Positions 3,713-54,128 of a stretch of DNA of 64,000 bases are shown piece by piece (positions within the stretch are counted from its first letter, which is position 1; each line of letters opens with the position of its first letter). The notes under the pieces are model-generated. The model ran no database searches and had not been told where the DNA came from. It saw nothing but the letters and a program-made list of their open reading frames with translations. This DNA is from Octopus sinensis (taxonomy: Eukaryota), in NCBI RefSeq assembly GCF_006345805.1, contig NC_042998.1:97960001-98024000 (forward strand), in the 5' to 3' direction. Made by a program: the position numbers and the translations under genes.

Positions 3713-3790
3713 CTGTTACGATTGGCTGGTTGTGCTCGCGTCATGAGTCAATGATGCCTTGTATAAAGGCACAGCTATTAGTACACACAC
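3713..3790 (+). promoter_or_regulatory. Candidate Pol II promoter, copy A (CCAAT, half-CRE, AP-1, TATA)
   Basis: ATTGG 3721-3725, GCGTCA 3738-3743, TGAGTCA 3744-3750, TATAAAG 3762-3768. Aligns colinearly with 5317-5400. Confidence 0.5.
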
Positions 3791-5316: not shown

Positions 5317-5404
5317 CTGTTACGATTGGTTGATCGTTCTGACGTCATCAGTCATTGATGCAGACAACACTTGTATAAATGCACTACCATTAGCACGCAC
5401 TACA
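5317..5404 (+). promoter_or_regulatory. Candidate Pol II promoter, copy B (CCAAT, perfect CRE, TATA, Inr)
   Basis: ATTGG 5325-5329, TGACGTCA 5340-5347, TATAAAT 5374-5380, and an Inr-like cAtt at A5404, 30 nt after the TATA start. Confidence 0.65.
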
Positions 5405-5425
5405 TTACAGAATATAATTGTCGAC
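5404..5425 (+). other. Candidate non-coding exon 1 of the 44035 prepropeptide gene
   Basis: Followed by consensus donor GTAAGT at 5426-5431. Splicing to the AG at 44033-44034 gives gtcGACATGG, a strong Kozak context with no upstream ATG. Confidence 0.5.
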
Positions 5426-5475
5426 GTAAGTACCGTATATTATTTTCGATATAGTTTTAAGTTATTATGTATGTC

Positions 5476-42968: not shown

Positions 42969-43376
42969 AAATACATATGTATGTATGTATGCATGCATGC
43001 ATGCATGTATGTATGTATGTAAGTATGTATGTATGTATATCGACATTTACAAAATTATCAACACGTTTCCTAAATATTTACCAGAATGTTGGGTTCCGAA
43101 TCTGAAGTGTATTTAAGAAAGGAGCCGGTCATTCTATAAATATCGATTTCATGAAATAAGAACTCTTTCACTCAACAATATTGAATACATTCTATTCCGT
43201 CTGTAGGCGCATGGGATGTAGAACAGTTTTTTTTTTACTTCATTTTTCTGAGAAGACAAGCTGTGAAAATTAAGGAAAATCATTTCTGCAGGAATGTGAG
43301 ACTGCGTTACAGCGTTGGTTTTCCAGAAGCCTACCTATTCCTCTATTACAGTTGCCGTTTTAGATTGAAATATTGA

Positions 43377-43819
43377 TTTCAAATTTTGGCACAAAGTCAA
43401 CAATTTCGGTGGCTGGGTAAGTCGATTACATTAACCCCACTGCTTAACTGGTATTTATTTTATCGACTCCGAAAGGATGAAAGACAAAGTCGGCTGCGAC
43501 GGAATTTGAACTCAGAACGTAAAGACGAACGAAATGCCACGAAGCATTTCGCCAGGCATGCTAACGTTTCTGCTAGCTCACCAGTTTTTTTCTTTTTTGA
43601 AATGCTGAGTTCAAATTTTTGGCTCAAAGCCAGTAATTTCGGGGGAGGGATAAGTCGATAACATCAACCCCAGAATTCAAATTTTATCAACTCCGAAAGG
43701 ATGAAAGGTAAAGTTAACATCGGCGGAATTTGAACACAGAACGTAAAGACGGTCGAAATGTCGCTAATCATTTTGCCCGACGTGCTAACGATTCCACCAG
43801 TTCGCCACCATTTTTTAAA
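43377..43819 (-). mobile_element. Pair of SINE family A copies inside one 13-bp TSD
   Basis: attgaaatattga at 43364-43376 and 43820-43832. Confidence 0.85.
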
Positions 43820-44004
43820 ATTGAAATATTGAAAACAGAAAATAATTTTTGAAATTGCATACCATTAATTATTTTTCAATACTCTCGAGAATGACAAACA
43901 AAGAACTTGGTTCCTCGCCCTCATTAAATGTCTAGCTTTGTACATGAATAATTATTCAATTTTTTAACAACAGCCACATAAAATATTGTCTTTACATTCT
44001 GTAC

Positions 44005-44034
44005 ATCTTGCTTTTATTCTTTTTTTTTTTTTAG
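44005..44034 (+). other. Polypyrimidine tract and splice acceptor abutting the start codon
   Basis: cttttattcttttttttttttttag|ATG. Confidence 0.85.
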
Positions 44035-44700
44035 ATGGCTGCTAAATATAGTCTTGTTGGTGGTACATTAATCAATATCCTTATTCTGAGCTTTACAATT
44101 CAGCTTGTATTCGTCGGAGTTTCGGAAAGCAGACAAGGCTGCCCAGCCAATTCAGTGAAAGAAGTCATATGTTCGTCGTGTTTCAAGCTGCCAGAAACTT
44201 TGCAACCACTTGTATCAAAGTGTTGCATCCAACCTGAAGCACTCATGCTTTGTGAAAAATGTCTGAGAGACAACGATCATTGTCAAGGGGAAGTGATGGA
44301 GCTCTTGAAACTCTACATACGAAGTGGTAATGTTGTACTTAATCGAAACAACGGCTTAGCTGTCTCACCAGAGAGTGCGTTTGCCAATCGTTACCGATAC
44401 CTGTTAATGAAGAGAGACTACGAGCCTACAACATCAACAATGTCGGCAGATTACGAAAGGTCTTTACTACCGGAATTTCTAAGACAGTATAAAGCATTCC
44501 AGTTAGAAAGGCGATTAGACAAGTTGGTCTCTAAAAGAGAAGCTGAACAAATGGTTGCGGCTCCAGCTGTTGATGAAAGGAAACGATCGGGAAGAGTATT
44601 CACGAGCAGATTTCGAAATCGTTACAGTGGTTATTTGTCTCCAACAGTAACAAGACTGGAACCATCTGGAAAAATTCATTTGTCAGATCTTGAAAAATAG
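44035..44700 (+). CDS. Secreted prepropeptide (neuropeptide/hormone precursor) with an N-terminal 8-Cys domain; possibly lophotrochozoan opioid-like family
   Basis: The longest ORF in the window (221 aa) and non-repetitive. Hydrophobic signal peptide with S-E-S|R cleavage after residue 32. C36-x9-C-x2-C-x13-CC-x8-C-x2-C-x6-C83. Basic sites KR126-127, RR159-160, KR167-168, RKR182-184. Confidence 0.85.
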   Translation: MAAKYSLVGGTLINILILSFTIQLVFVGVSESRQGCPANSVKEVICSSCFKLPETLQPLVSKCCIQPEALMLCEKCLRDNDHCQGEVMELLKLYIRSGNVVLNRNNGLAVSPESAFANRYRYLLMKRDYEPTTSTMSADYERSLLPEFLRQYKAFQLERRLDKLVSKREAEQMVAAPAVDERKRSGRVFTSRFRNRYSGYLSPTVTRLEPSGKIHLSDLEK

Positions 44701-44812
44701 ATGTTACTACACTTTGAAATCTACCATCTTAAAGTCTAAAATGGTTTCTCATTCGTCAAGATATTTCAAAGTCACAATTGTTTCAAACAAATTAAGATGT
44801 GCTCTCTCTCCC

Positions 44813-44922
<110 letters not shown>

Positions 44923-45170
44923 AAAGATAGCTTAATGCTTCAGATTCATTCAGTCGTTTATTCATATTTATTATCTATTAATAATACTACCGACAGATTC
45001 TACGAATGGATTTATTCGGTCTCTCTTTCACGAGAAATTTCTCCTTACTTATAACATCTATAATTTTATGATTACTTCTATTGCAACAACTCATTCAGTA
45101 GACGACTGTTATCAGTTAATTCAACATTCAGCTGGATTTACCAATGAAAAGATATTTATTATTTCGGTAA

Positions 45171-45634
45171 AATAAATATCAGAATCTATTCAGTTAACTC
45201 TAGCCTTTCCCCATGATCAATAGACCCTCCATATAATGAGAAAAAAATATTCAATATTTATTATGTTCATAATTTCCATCAAGAAACCATGAAACAGTGA
45301 TTACTTTTTTGCTAAGTTGAATAACAGACGGAAATGGTCGACGAAAATGTCTTCTCAGCTACACATATGGACACACTGCATTACACTTAGTTAATTTAGT
45401 TAGAACACTTTTTAAAAACAGACAGTCATTGCCATCTTGATATAAACGGATTCTTTCTTTATCTTTTTCATATTCCGGTTCCAGTTGACACTGTGCTGAT
45501 TATTTATTTACAAATTTATGTATTTTCAAATGAAAATAACGATACGATCAATGGCCAAAAATATAATTATAAAAATAAAACAATGGCATCATTATTTATC
45601 GTTTTTACTTATCTGTAATATCAAATGAAATAAA
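45171..45634 (+). terminator. Candidate polyadenylation signals of the prepropeptide gene
   Basis: AATAAA at 45171-45176, 45574-45579 and 45629-45634 in AT-rich downstream sequence; which is used is unknown. Confidence 0.35.
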
Positions 45635-46759
45635 GTATTCCAGTCTTAATGAACTGGATATTGTTTGTGATCCATGAATTTGCTTCTCACCATCCACTCT
45701 ATGGGCTACTCGGCGATGTACGTGCTGAAAACCGTATTCATTTCAATGTTTAATATTATTTGTTTCCAACAGGGACCTTCTCAATTTGTTTATGTCGAAG
45801 GAATATATGTATTAGCACATCTCCGGGAAATAGCGTGTAATGTTAAAATAGCAGGGTTGAACACGACCAAGGGAAATGCTTTGTTTCGTCTGTAATTCAC
45901 CTGAGTTTTTGTTACTGTTGCTGCTGTAGTTGCTGCCGCTTGTCATACGTAATGGAAAAGAATGCAGATGAAAAAAAATCTATTTCTGATTATTACAGTT
46001 TCGGGATTTCAAAAATTTAAAATAACGATGAGAGGTTCATCCCGTTGAAGTATCTGTTTAATTAACTAATAGAAATTACCATCGTCAACATTTTCTGTTT
46101 TTTGAACATCGTGTTTAAAAAAATTGCTCTTCTTAAGGGCCATACTAAAGATTTAAAATCATAGATTATTTTGAACAGCACCAGAAATAGATGAGACTTC
46201 GATGTCACTATTGGTTGCTAAATAATTCAAGTGCCTTGATCTGCAACCATTATAAATTGTTTTCATATGAGTTTTATAATCATTAGAATTTTCAGAAGTG
46301 TTAGTTAAGATGTGTTTCAACTCCAACAATTTCAATAAGTTACCTTGTTTGTAACACCTCTGTTAATGAGTTAGTGAACTGCGCTTCTGATCTTTTGATC
46401 ATTCTTCTTTCTACTTTAATATACACAAATTTTAAGAAAGACAGGCCAAGTAATTAAATGGTAATGTCAGTGAGAGTGAAATTTAATGTTCTCACAGTGT
46501 TTATCAAATCGATTTTGAATTGGTTGTTTATCATTGACCTCTCCATTTCTCAGTTCTAAAAGGTTTATCCATTTGTAAATTTATTATAACAATTCTTAAA
46601 TAGATACCATTTTACTGGCGACTGGAAAGATTTTCATCTTACAGGTTTGTAAAGTTGAACTTCACAAACGTGTAAGATGTTAACATTTTATAGGAATTTA
46701 ACATATCCACTCAATAGACTTCTTTCAAACATAAAAAAAAAACACTAGGGCATTTCAGA

Positions 46760-48960
46760 CCCATTTTACTGCAAAATATCGATGGGAGGATCATGTATGG
46801 AATTATTGCCAGGCGAATCATAATATTCGTACAGCATACCGGATATGTTAATGAAACAATCCAGAAGGTAAGGATCTCTGGAATCCCTGGATACATAGAA
46901 CATACATTTGCCATCTGGGAAGCTATCATCAACTAAAGAAAAAACTGTACATTGTATGGCTAGATCTTGCCAACGCATATGGATCTATTCCACACGCACT
47001 GATTCAAGCAGCTATGGACTTCTTTTGGATTCCAGATGTTCAACGAATGTTGATGCGTTACTACGATAAATTGAGGATGGGATTTACAGCAGGAAGGTTC
47101 ACAACGCAGTGGCAACGGCAAGAAGTAGGTATTGCAGCTGGATGCACGATATCACTCATATTATCTGTGCTAGTCATGGAGATGTTACTAAGATCAACAA
47201 ACTGTGAGAAATCTGTTACAAAGACACCATTAAGGACTTTTATGGAGGACATTACTGTATTGTCAGAATGTAGAAAAGCAGCAGATGAAGCGTTAGAGCG
47301 GTTGGGCGAAATGATAGGATGGGCAAGAATGAAATTCAAAGCTAAGAAATCTCGAAGTGTGGCATTCGTGAAGGGAGTCCAAAAAGAAGTGAAGTTCAAG
47401 ATAAGAGGTGAATATATACTAACGGTGAAAGAACAACAAATAAAAAGTCTCGGCAGAGATTTATTAAATGATAAGAAGCAAAGCAAAGAAACACGATTTA
47501 GTGGAACAGGGACTAAAGGCAATTGACAGAACAACATTACCGGGGAAATTCAAATGCTGGATACTGTAATTTGGACTGCACCCAAGGATAATGTGGCCAT
47601 TGCAAATGTATGAAATAGTCTCGAGTAGAGTAGAAAGAATGGAACAAAGATGTAATGTGTTTATCAGGAAATAGCTCTTCCTAAACCACTGAATACAACT
47701 GCACTATATGGAAAAACTTATGCTGCAACAACTGATAATATCAATCGTCGAAGAATATAAAGCAGGCAAGCGAGGACAGTAATGATGCTAAGGTATTCGA
47801 AAGATCAGAACATCCGAGAAAATCCCACAAAGGTACGAACAGGGAGGAAATGGAAAGCGGAAGAAGCAGTAAACAGCGCGATCGGAAAGCTAAGGCATGC
47901 CGATATAGTCGGAGCAACGCAAGAAGCAAGAGCCGGTCTAGGGTTGAATACTTTCAAACCATTTTGCCTGAGCAGTGTAAAAGTGATGAAAGAGGCAGTG
48001 GTACACGAAGTAAGAAAAGAGAAAAAAGAAAGGCGAAATGTACATTTGGTGCAATTTAGTCGACACGGACAGTACCTGAGATGGGAGGAATGTGGTCAAT
48101 CGGCGAATCTCATGGAAGGAACTTTGGACTTGGGAACAAGCAAGACCATCCTTCCTGATCAAGACTAGCTTCGACGTTTTGACTTCACCGGCCCATTTAG
48201 TCCGGTGGAACATACAAACGACTGATGAATGTAGATGCAGAGAGAAAGCGACGGTGAGACATGTTCTGTCAAACTAAAGACTAGGACTAGACAGATATAC
48301 CTGGCGTCACAATCAAGTCCTCGGTGTCATAAGCGCAGTACTCAAGGAGAAAAATCGAGGGATATAATAGGGGAGAGTACCCAAAAATGGAAAAGCGCGG
48401 AAGGATATACTTCCAGAAGGAGGGAAAAGGACATAAGACCAGGCCTTCAAAAATAGTATACGAGATAGACAAAAGATGGAAGGGATACTTGGAGCTGGTT
48501 GCAGATTTGGAAAGACATAATATTTCCACTCATAAAAACAGCAAAAAGACTGGACTTAATCCTATGGAATACAGAACAAAAAATTAGAATTTTGCTAGAG
48601 CTGACAGTGCCAAGGGAAGAGAACATCGCTGATGCAGAACAACAGAAGGAGAGGCGGTATTAAAGATTAATTGAAGAGTGCTAGGAACAGGGGTGGATTG
48701 TCGAGTATTACCACCTGGCAGTGGGGGCTAGAGGATTTATTGAAAAGAAAATGGGGCATTTTCGAGCTCAGAGCTGAGAAAAGTAAAGTAATAAGGAGGA
48801 TACAAGAGGCAGTCGAAAAAGCCAGCTTCTATACATGGCTGGACGAGAAGACCCGAAATAGCTTGAAAGCCATAAAATGCCAACTGGGAAATAGCGACGC
48901 TAGGTGAGGCTGGCTAGCACTCAAACAGCGTTGCGTGCCCCCCTCCCCAATAGTACCAAG
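46760..48960 (+). mobile_element. Hero-like (R2-group, RLE-type) LINE, 5'-truncated and frameshifted
   Basis: VWLDLANAYGSIPH, GIAAGCTIS, FMEDITVL, WARMKFKAKKSRS, TGRKWKA, CRCREKATVRHVLSN, RYTWRHNQVL, ELTVP, VGARGF. Confidence 0.85.
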
Positions 48961-52892: not shown

Positions 52893-54128
52893 CGAGGGGC
52901 GTTCAATAAGTAATGCCCCTGACCCACTTGCAGTTGTTTGATCTAGCTGAAATTTTGCATGTGCACTTATTTATACCTCTATAGATTAAGTGGCAAATTA
53001 CAGCTCTGAACTAATTGTGGTTTCTGATTTACAGGTGTTTGAACTGAGTCAAGTGTGAAATGGAGCCTGTTGAGTGTCGAGCAGTGATCTGGTTTTTGTA
53101 TTTGAAAGGACGCACACCACGGGAGACTTTTGATGAAATGAAAGTAACTTATGGTGATGATGCCCCATCATATGACCTTGTAAAACGCTGGCATTGTGAA
53201 TTCAAACATAGTCAGAACTCTATGGAAACAGCTCCCAGATCTGGTCGCCCCCATCTGCCGTTGATGAGACGTCTGTCCGTCAAGTTGAGGCTGCCATTTT
53301 GGAAGGTCAACGCATAACTATTCGCCAAATAGCCCATAAGGTCAAGATTAGTACCGGGTCTGTGGAAACTATCATTCATGACCGTTTGCATATGCAAAAG
53401 GTGTCTGCCAGATGGATTTCCAGGTTGCTCATACCTTTCCAGAAGCAAGAATGCGTTGAGTGCTCGAGGATGAATTTGGAGATGCGCCAAGAAGATGAGT
53501 CAAAATTTTTCAAAAGACTGATCACACAGGATAAAACCAGTCAATGCAGTGAAAGCATCGTGACTCACCTCCTCCAAAGAAGGCAAGGGTGCAGCCCTCT
53601 GCTGACAAGGTTATGCTCACAGTCTTCTGGGACCAGGACGGAGTAGTGATGACAGATTTCCTGGCAAAGGGTACCACAATTACAGGAGCCTATTATGCTT
53701 CACTTTTGAGGAAATTAAGAGAAGTTATCAAAATCAAGAGGCGGGGCAAGATCAGCAAAGGTATCCTCCTCCTGCAGGACAACGCTCCAGTCCACAACTC
53801 GCGTGTTGCCAGATCAGAAGCACAGGCATGCAGCTATGAACTCCTCCCCTTGCACCCTCTGATTTTCACCTCTTCCCAGCCATGAAGTTGATTTTGAAAG
53901 GAAAGCGTTTCCCAGATGATGCAGCCTTGATTTTTGAAGTCACGTCGTGGTTGGAGGACCAAGCTGGGGTCTTCTACAAAAACGGTCTCCAGAGCTGTAT
54001 CAAACGATGGGTGAAATGCATAACTCTGGGTAGTTCGTATGTTGGAAAAGACTAATAACTGTGCCAAGTGTCGTTGCTCTACTGCTATGGGAAGTGGGTC
54101 AGGGGCATTACTTATTGAACGCCCCTCG
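52893..54128 (+). mobile_element. Near full-length mariner transposon with disrupted transposase
   Basis: Perfect 37-bp TIRs (52893-52929, 54092-54128) flanked by TA. ORF pieces MEPVECRAVIWFLYLKG, KVSARWISRLL, LITQDKT, KVMLTVFWD, LLLQDNAPVH. Confidence 0.95.

Follow-up and report, generated by a model that had tools for sequence, protein, structure and literature searches.

A probable octopod orthologue of the lophotrochozoan proenkephalin-like peptide precursors in Octopus sinensis

A conserved precursor gene at the locus

We analysed a 64,000-nucleotide stretch of the Octopus sinensis genome (contig NC_042998.1, positions 97,960,001 to 98,024,000 of the forward strand; hereafter the window, whose numbering is used throughout), which carries a 221-residue open reading frame (ORF), P0001, encoding a predicted secreted peptide precursor with an eight-cysteine domain (Table 1). 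No Met-started frame in the window exceeded P0001 in length, the sole longer stop-to-stop frame being a reverse-transcriptase fragment with its first Met far inside, and no ATG-started ORF of at least 221 residues arose in 200 base shuffles of the window (maximum 192 residues). Contigs of four of four sequencing runs (presumed RNA, from four studies) had one piece each over 44042–44797, as well as pieces that started at 44928 and ended between 45433 and 45755. At 44469, contigs of three of the four runs showed A>G, a silent change in the third base of a Leu codon that represents either an allele or editing.

P0001 was identical across all 221 residues to O. vulgaris CAI9718020 (P0004), 97% identical to O. 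bimaculoides XP_014772863, 95% identical to P0005 (an assembly protein) and 77% identical to Argonauta GAB1604926. The frame was intact and all eight cysteines were present in 5/5 octopod proteins, which come from at least three named species. Databases name these relatives only 'uncharacterized' or 'hypothetical', as might be expected of a chance ORF or a non-functional relic, but the shuffles, the retention of frame and cysteines and the uneven conservation along the protein all speak against such an origin, which is already refuted by the orthologues and has a negligible probability. An earlier note, made from the nucleotide letters, had proposed a secreted-precursor gene, and the ORF, its orthologues and the conserved cysteines bear this out, with secretion itself being a prediction. 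Two protein searches and a cysteine-plus-Pro pattern turned up no second copy of the gene in the genome; large-database protein searches found no relatives beyond octopods, and a Pfam scan of P0001 returned nothing at cut-off.

Table 1. Features of the P0001 locus, in window coordinates.
Feature	Position	Strand	Basis
Coding exon, 221-residue prepropeptide (P0001)	44035..44700	+	ORF, orthologues, contig piece in 4/4 runs
Predicted signal peptide, residues 1-32	44035..44130	+	Hydropathy and (-3,-1) rule
Eight-cysteine domain (C36-C83) and fourth helix to about residue 97	44140..44331	+	Spacing, alignment, fold prediction
Variable spacer, residues 100-166, with KR126-127, DYE segment 128-158 and RR159-160	44332..44532	+	Alignment
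KR167-168, acidic peptide EAEQMVAAPAVDE (169-181), RKR182-184	44533..44586	+	Alignment
C-terminal peptide 185-221, starting SGRVFTSRFRNRYSGY; single Tyr-less copy of the family peptide	44587..44697	+	Alignment, family comparison
Probable 3' untranslated region	44701..45755	+	Contig pieces; AATAAA at 45171, 45574 and 45629
Polypyrimidine tract and AG acceptor directly 5' of the ATG	44001..44034	+	Sequence
Putative upstream exon, GTAAGT donor at 5426	5352..5425	+	O. vulgaris model CAI9718020
Promoter-like motifs: reverse CCAAT (5325), palindromic CRE TGACGTCA (5340), TATAAA (5374)	5325..5379	+	Sequence, adjoining the putative first exon

Signal peptide, cysteine domain and downstream peptides

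A hydrophobic stretch at residues 11–29 (Kyte-Doolittle 2.2 over 19 residues; none above 0.9 after residue 40) with small-residue (-3,-1) sites after S30 and S32 predicts the N-terminal signal peptide that the earlier note had read from the translation. The cysteines at positions 36, 46, 49, 63, 64, 73, 76 and 83 (spacing 9,2,13,0,8,2,6) reproduce the pattern C-x9-C-x2-C-x13-CC-x8-C-x2-C-x6-C given there, exactly, in P0001 and in 5/5 octopod proteins; for one named eight-cysteine spacing placed randomly in 189 residues, p is about 4e-12. Between C36 and C83, 43 of 48 residues were identical in Octopus and Argonauta. The domain was predicted to adopt a four-helix fold (predicted local distance difference test, pLDDT, 81), in which, by analogy with structures of the same spacing, disulfides would join C36–C64, C46–C63 and C49–C73, the fourth presumably being C76–C83.

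P0001 has four basic sites (KR126-127, RR159-160, KR167-168 and RKR182-184), in line with the several convertase-type sites noted earlier, but KR126 is replaced by KK in three of the five octopod proteins. Conservation differed sharply along this half of the precursor: 39 of 67 spacer residues (100–166) were identical in Argonauta vs 42 of 44 residues at 169–212 (Fisher p 7e-6, for regions picked after the alignment was viewed). The acidic-peptide stretch was identical at 13 of 14 positions in Argonauta, the first 19 residues of the C-terminal peptide were invariant in 5/5 octopod proteins, and 37 residues (170–206) were invariant across all five. This near-invariance argues that the single Tyr-less copy of the C-terminal peptide still carries a signal. 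As far as seen, the 14-residue acidic spacer peptide is shared only with the squid Idiosepius, in which a counterpart of equal length between dibasic sites is identical at 6 of 14 positions (by eye); the listed Idiosepius sequence ends soon afterwards, without a YG or SGRVF peptide.

Two modifications suggested earlier fared less well. Tyrosine sulfation at two DYE motifs is unsupported, because the first DYE occurs in only three of the five proteins; the second (DYER) occurs in all five. Amidation at G212-K213 keeps its site, but this has a single Lys and is followed by eight more residues, making it a weak signal. Sulfakinin/CCK-type peptides combine a conserved acidic DY motif with an aromatic, amidated C-terminus downstream of it; such a peptide was rejected here, given the 3/5 occurrence of the first DYE and the lack of an amidated aromatic end after either DYE.

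Membership in the molluscan proenkephalin-like family

The earlier note had pointed to a CxxC..CC..CxxC domain in molluscan opioid-like precursors, and published members of that family match P0001 exactly. The O. bimaculoides orthologue, Ocbimv22011834, stands inside the proenkephalin block of supplementary file 3, part 99, of De Oliveira et al. 2019 (PMC6425005), which runs from vertebrate proenkephalins and Platynereis proenkephalin to Haliotis, and is listed again in the supplement of PMC8557429. Part 99 holds 29 lophotrochozoan block entries, 24 of them molluscan; a Haliotis fragment without the domain, two duplicates and the octopus entry were left out, giving a comparison set of 20. Counted by eye, the octopus spacing was exact in 18 of these 20 distinct non-octopus molluscan entries, and both exceptions were one residue off (Gadila, first gap 8; Idiosepius, third gap 12). 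The same cysteine domain occurs in the scallop, oyster, limpet and annelid 'opioid' precursors of the paper supplements, and residues other than cysteine are shared as well, for example K/R-L-P after the third cysteine, which is common to Lottia, scallop, oysters, scaphopods and octopus.

The peptide region extends this likeness. A dibasic-flanked G-[RKST]-[LVM]-F core is present as KR-SGRVFTS in 5/5 octopod proteins. From its second residue onward this peptide agrees with Dreissena YGRVF and Antalis WGRLFTS, which likewise follow a KR, and it is identical to the first Lottia peptide at 8 of 18 ungapped positions (by eye). The KR-SGRVF peptide, noted earlier for lacking an N-terminal Tyr, is in this comparison the Tyr-less counterpart of the family's YG peptides. 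Dibasic-flanked Tyr/Phe/Trp-Gly peptides occur in 15 of the 20 other molluscan entries, and the dibasic-[YF]G motif in none of the five octopod proteins; repeated Tyr/Phe/Trp-start peptides were treated as typical of the family and not as defining it, being absent in 5/20 other members. The eight-cysteine domain is likewise found without a Tyr/Phe-Gly peptide in Solemya, two solenogasters, one Antalis copy and Idiosepius (some possibly truncated), and loss of these repeats may have happened several times. Overall, the octopus precursor shares with the lophotrochozoan proenkephalin/opioid-like precursors (scallop MH045241, Crassostrea CU990987, Pinctada, Lottia FC753982, Platynereis; PMC4200219, PMC5996578, PMC6425005, PMC8557429) a signal peptide with the cysteine domain of identical spacing directly behind it, K/R-L-P, a variable spacer and a KR-flanked x-G-R-[VLM]-F peptide, and differs from them in having one peptide copy where they have several, Ser where they have Tyr, Phe or Trp at position 1, and a long unamidated C-terminal extension.

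The shared spacing, the peptide core and the published listing thus place P0001 in the molluscan opioid-like ('proenkephalin') family, as the earlier note had suggested. Its further suggestion of a cephalopod-specific molecule did not hold: with the orthologue listed in both supplements, gene and family are already in print, if only as supplementary data. The octopus gene is a known gene of a known family whose listing dates from 2019; a search of paper passages and supplement text found no main-text discussion of it.

Together, the ORF, its orthologues, the exact family spacing, the published listing and the conservation profile make it probable (roughly 0.7) that P0001 represents the lophotrochozoan proenkephalin/opioid-like precursor in octopods, an orthologue that neurons likely secrete and from which convertases would release a cysteine domain, an acidic peptide and an SGRVFTS peptide acting on a non-opioid receptor. 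Several points weigh against this assignment. The Ocbimv22011834 entry is unlabelled, and its membership is read from its position in a similarity-clustering block. P0001 itself and Argonauta were the only two matches in three word-seeded searches (221, 3 and 6 candidates), phmmer against 1.84 billion representatives returned only Argonauta, and no computed alignment or hidden Markov model (HMM) score ties P0001 to bivalve or gastropod members, so that the family match rests on inspection and the published listing. Folding of the full-length precursor in silico gave no useful information (pLDDT 43.6). The octopus peptide does not begin with the family's typical aromatic residue, and the Idiosepius entry (possibly truncated) lacks even an SGRVF-like peptide, which means that this peptide is possibly not the main signal. 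Finally, tissue, peptide products and receptor are assigned to the octopus gene by analogy.

Resemblance of the cysteine domain to ITP/CHH and toxin folds

The first six cysteines (9,2,13,0,8) are within one residue of HAND-type spacing (9,2,12,0,8), a closeness reached by 10 of 987,728 possible patterns (a post-hoc figure), and the octopus domain is, by prediction, all-helical like ITP/CHH and the derived centipede HAND peptides (kappa-SLPTX3-Ssm1a, 2M35; Ssm6a, 2MZ4). PF01147 (ITP/CHH) gave no match to P0001. The earlier note had set an ITP/CHH-like or toxin assignment against the opioid-like label; what emerged is a weak resemblance in fold and spacing, confined to the cysteine domain, that adds to the label and does not replace it. 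That the cysteine domain is itself the main hormone, an ITP/CHH-fold ligand of a membrane guanylate cyclase or G-protein-coupled receptor (GPCR), while the peptides downstream of it decayed in several lineages, appears unlikely. A broader proposal, in which the cysteine domain of lophotrochozoan 'proenkephalins' bridges vertebrate synenkephalin and ITP/CHH as one ancient helical disulfide fold, and in coleoids, whose enkephalin-like repeats have dwindled to one Tyr-less peptide, the domain and a coleoid-specific acidic peptide are the signals themselves, is offered tentatively and seems doubtful.

The same resemblance would also suit recruitment of the gene into octopus saliva or venom, with the cysteine domain as a paralytic ion-channel modulator comparable to shrew synenkephalin and centipede ITP. 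Venom genes usually duplicate and change fast; here no duplicate was found in the genome, conservation was strong out to Argonauta, and the full precursor with its convertase sites was retained, all of which make this very unlikely despite its precedents. These are the shrew BPP peptides, which derive from the proenkephalin cysteine domain, have the SLPTX disulfide pattern and paralyse mealworms (PMC10493266), and the neuropeptide-like salivary peptides used by octopuses (PMC13311285).

Evidence on an opioid function

The layout of an N-terminal cysteine domain followed by dibasic-flanked peptides is that of vertebrate proenkephalin, the protostome family is grouped with proenkephalin in several surveys, and its C-x2-C-x13-C core also occurs in BPP2, which derives from shrew synenkephalin. 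From these features one could argue for a functional cephalopod enkephalin equivalent, an endogenous analgesic at AstC receptors, the nearest to vertebrate opioid receptors. However, YGGF (or FGGF) after a dibasic site, the message sequence of the vertebrate opioid precursors (PENK, PDYN, PNOC and POMC), is absent from the octopod proteins, which also lack Tyr1 and any dibasic-[YF]G, and PF01160 matched neither P0001 nor, among 34 genome rows, its locus at E 10. The octopus domain has eight cysteines with an adjacent CC, whereas the vertebrate synenkephalin domain (PF01160) has six, spaced 3,2,13,3,12 vs 9,2,13,0,8 in octopus. Tyr1 is needed for vertebrate opioid binding (PMC13311285), and the loss of the N-terminal Tyr argues against opioid-type pharmacology. 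Opioid precursors and receptors are reported absent in O. vulgaris (PMC12919962; bioRxiv 10.64898/2026.02.18.706622), the AstC receptors of which are activated by AstC, and, according to a review, invertebrates have no homologues of either opioid peptides or their receptors (PMC5818035). An enkephalin equivalent is accordingly highly improbable, and the gene product is likely a nerve signal and unlikely a true opioid. The opioid-like label holds as the name of a protostome family to which P0001 belongs, but the homology of that family to vertebrate opioids is disputed (PMC5818035).

Proposed mechanism and significance

As the octopod proenkephalin-like orthologue, the precursor would enter the regulated secretory pathway and form four disulfides in its N-terminal domain. 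PC1/PC2-type convertases would cut at the conserved KR167-168 and RKR182-184, and less reliably at 126-127 and 159-160, which would yield a helical cysteine domain, an acidic 13-mer and a basic 37-mer or fragments of it cut at internal Arg. Calculated monoisotopic masses are 1358.60 for residues 169–181, 4253.25 for 185–221 and 752.38 for 185–191. From the precursor and its relatives we infer that the signal peptide is removed, that convertases cut the chain, that the disulfides form, that neurons express the gene and that the target is a GPCR; O. vulgaris is reported to have PCSK and CPE genes (PMC12919962). Neuronal release is our best guess by analogy with scallop and oyster, in which family peptides were detected by mass spectrometry (supplement rows), and with Platynereis, in which proenkephalin marks one neuron type. 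The SGRVFTS peptide would then act on a non-opioid receptor, presumably a GPCR; a literature search yielded no receptor for the lophotrochozoan proenkephalin-like family among the matches listed. The Tyr/Phe-Gly repeats seen in bivalves, gastropods, chitons and scaphopods would have been reduced in octopods to one copy beginning with Ser.

The existence of an endogenous opioid-like system in cephalopods is an open question that bears on their welfare. According to two papers of 2026, opioid precursors or convincing peptides of this class are absent (PMC12919962; bioRxiv 10.64898/2026.02.18.706622). The available passages of these papers and of PMC5818035 that treat opioid absence make no mention of the octopus gene. 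It is nevertheless the octopus member of the only protostome family ever called proenkephalin, overlooked by BLAST with vertebrate queries and unremarked in a supplement, and it provides three defined candidate molecules (the cysteine domain, the acidic peptide and the SGRVF peptide). Its octopod anatomy, a single strongly constrained peptide without Tyr alongside an acidic peptide of coleoids, has gone undiscussed, and it merits attention together with the fold possibly shared with synenkephalin and ITP/CHH. If true, the fold link would inform the dispute over whether protostome and vertebrate proenkephalins are homologous, and would connect the two with ITP/CHH.

Upstream region and neighbouring repeats

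With its ATG directly behind a poly-T tract and AG acceptor, the ORF most likely belongs to a spliced gene as one of its coding exons. In the O. vulgaris model, 24 residues of the N-terminal extension are encoded at the putative upstream exon and continue straight into the ORF Met, which would require a splice to the 44034 acceptor, about 38.6 kb away; if the model is right, most of the window (5426–44034) is one 38.6-kb 5'-leader intron. The first 24 residues of the model are not encoded within the window, and its 50-residue N-terminal extension may be an annotation artefact.

The motifs adjoining this exon, which we take from general knowledge to be CCAAT, CRE and TATAAA elements, suggest a promoter. 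The CRE occurs once in the window, where chance predicts 0.69 copies (0.002 per 200 bp). A second copy of the promoter-like stretch (5317–5400) lies 1.6 kb upstream at 3713–3788, is 74% identical and retains GATTGG, CGTCA and CTTGTATAAA; a genome search with the stretch matched only these two, which may reflect duplication of a core promoter.

The interval 43370–43800, shortly upstream of the acceptor, comprises a very abundant dispersed repeat in two copies, with contig depth reaching 100,000. Downstream of the gene lie a fragmented non-LTR reverse transcriptase at 46855–48168 (PF00078, E 5.8e-15 for 46855–47523) and a mariner-type transposase remnant in two frames at 53212–53885 (PF01359, E 2.8e-20).
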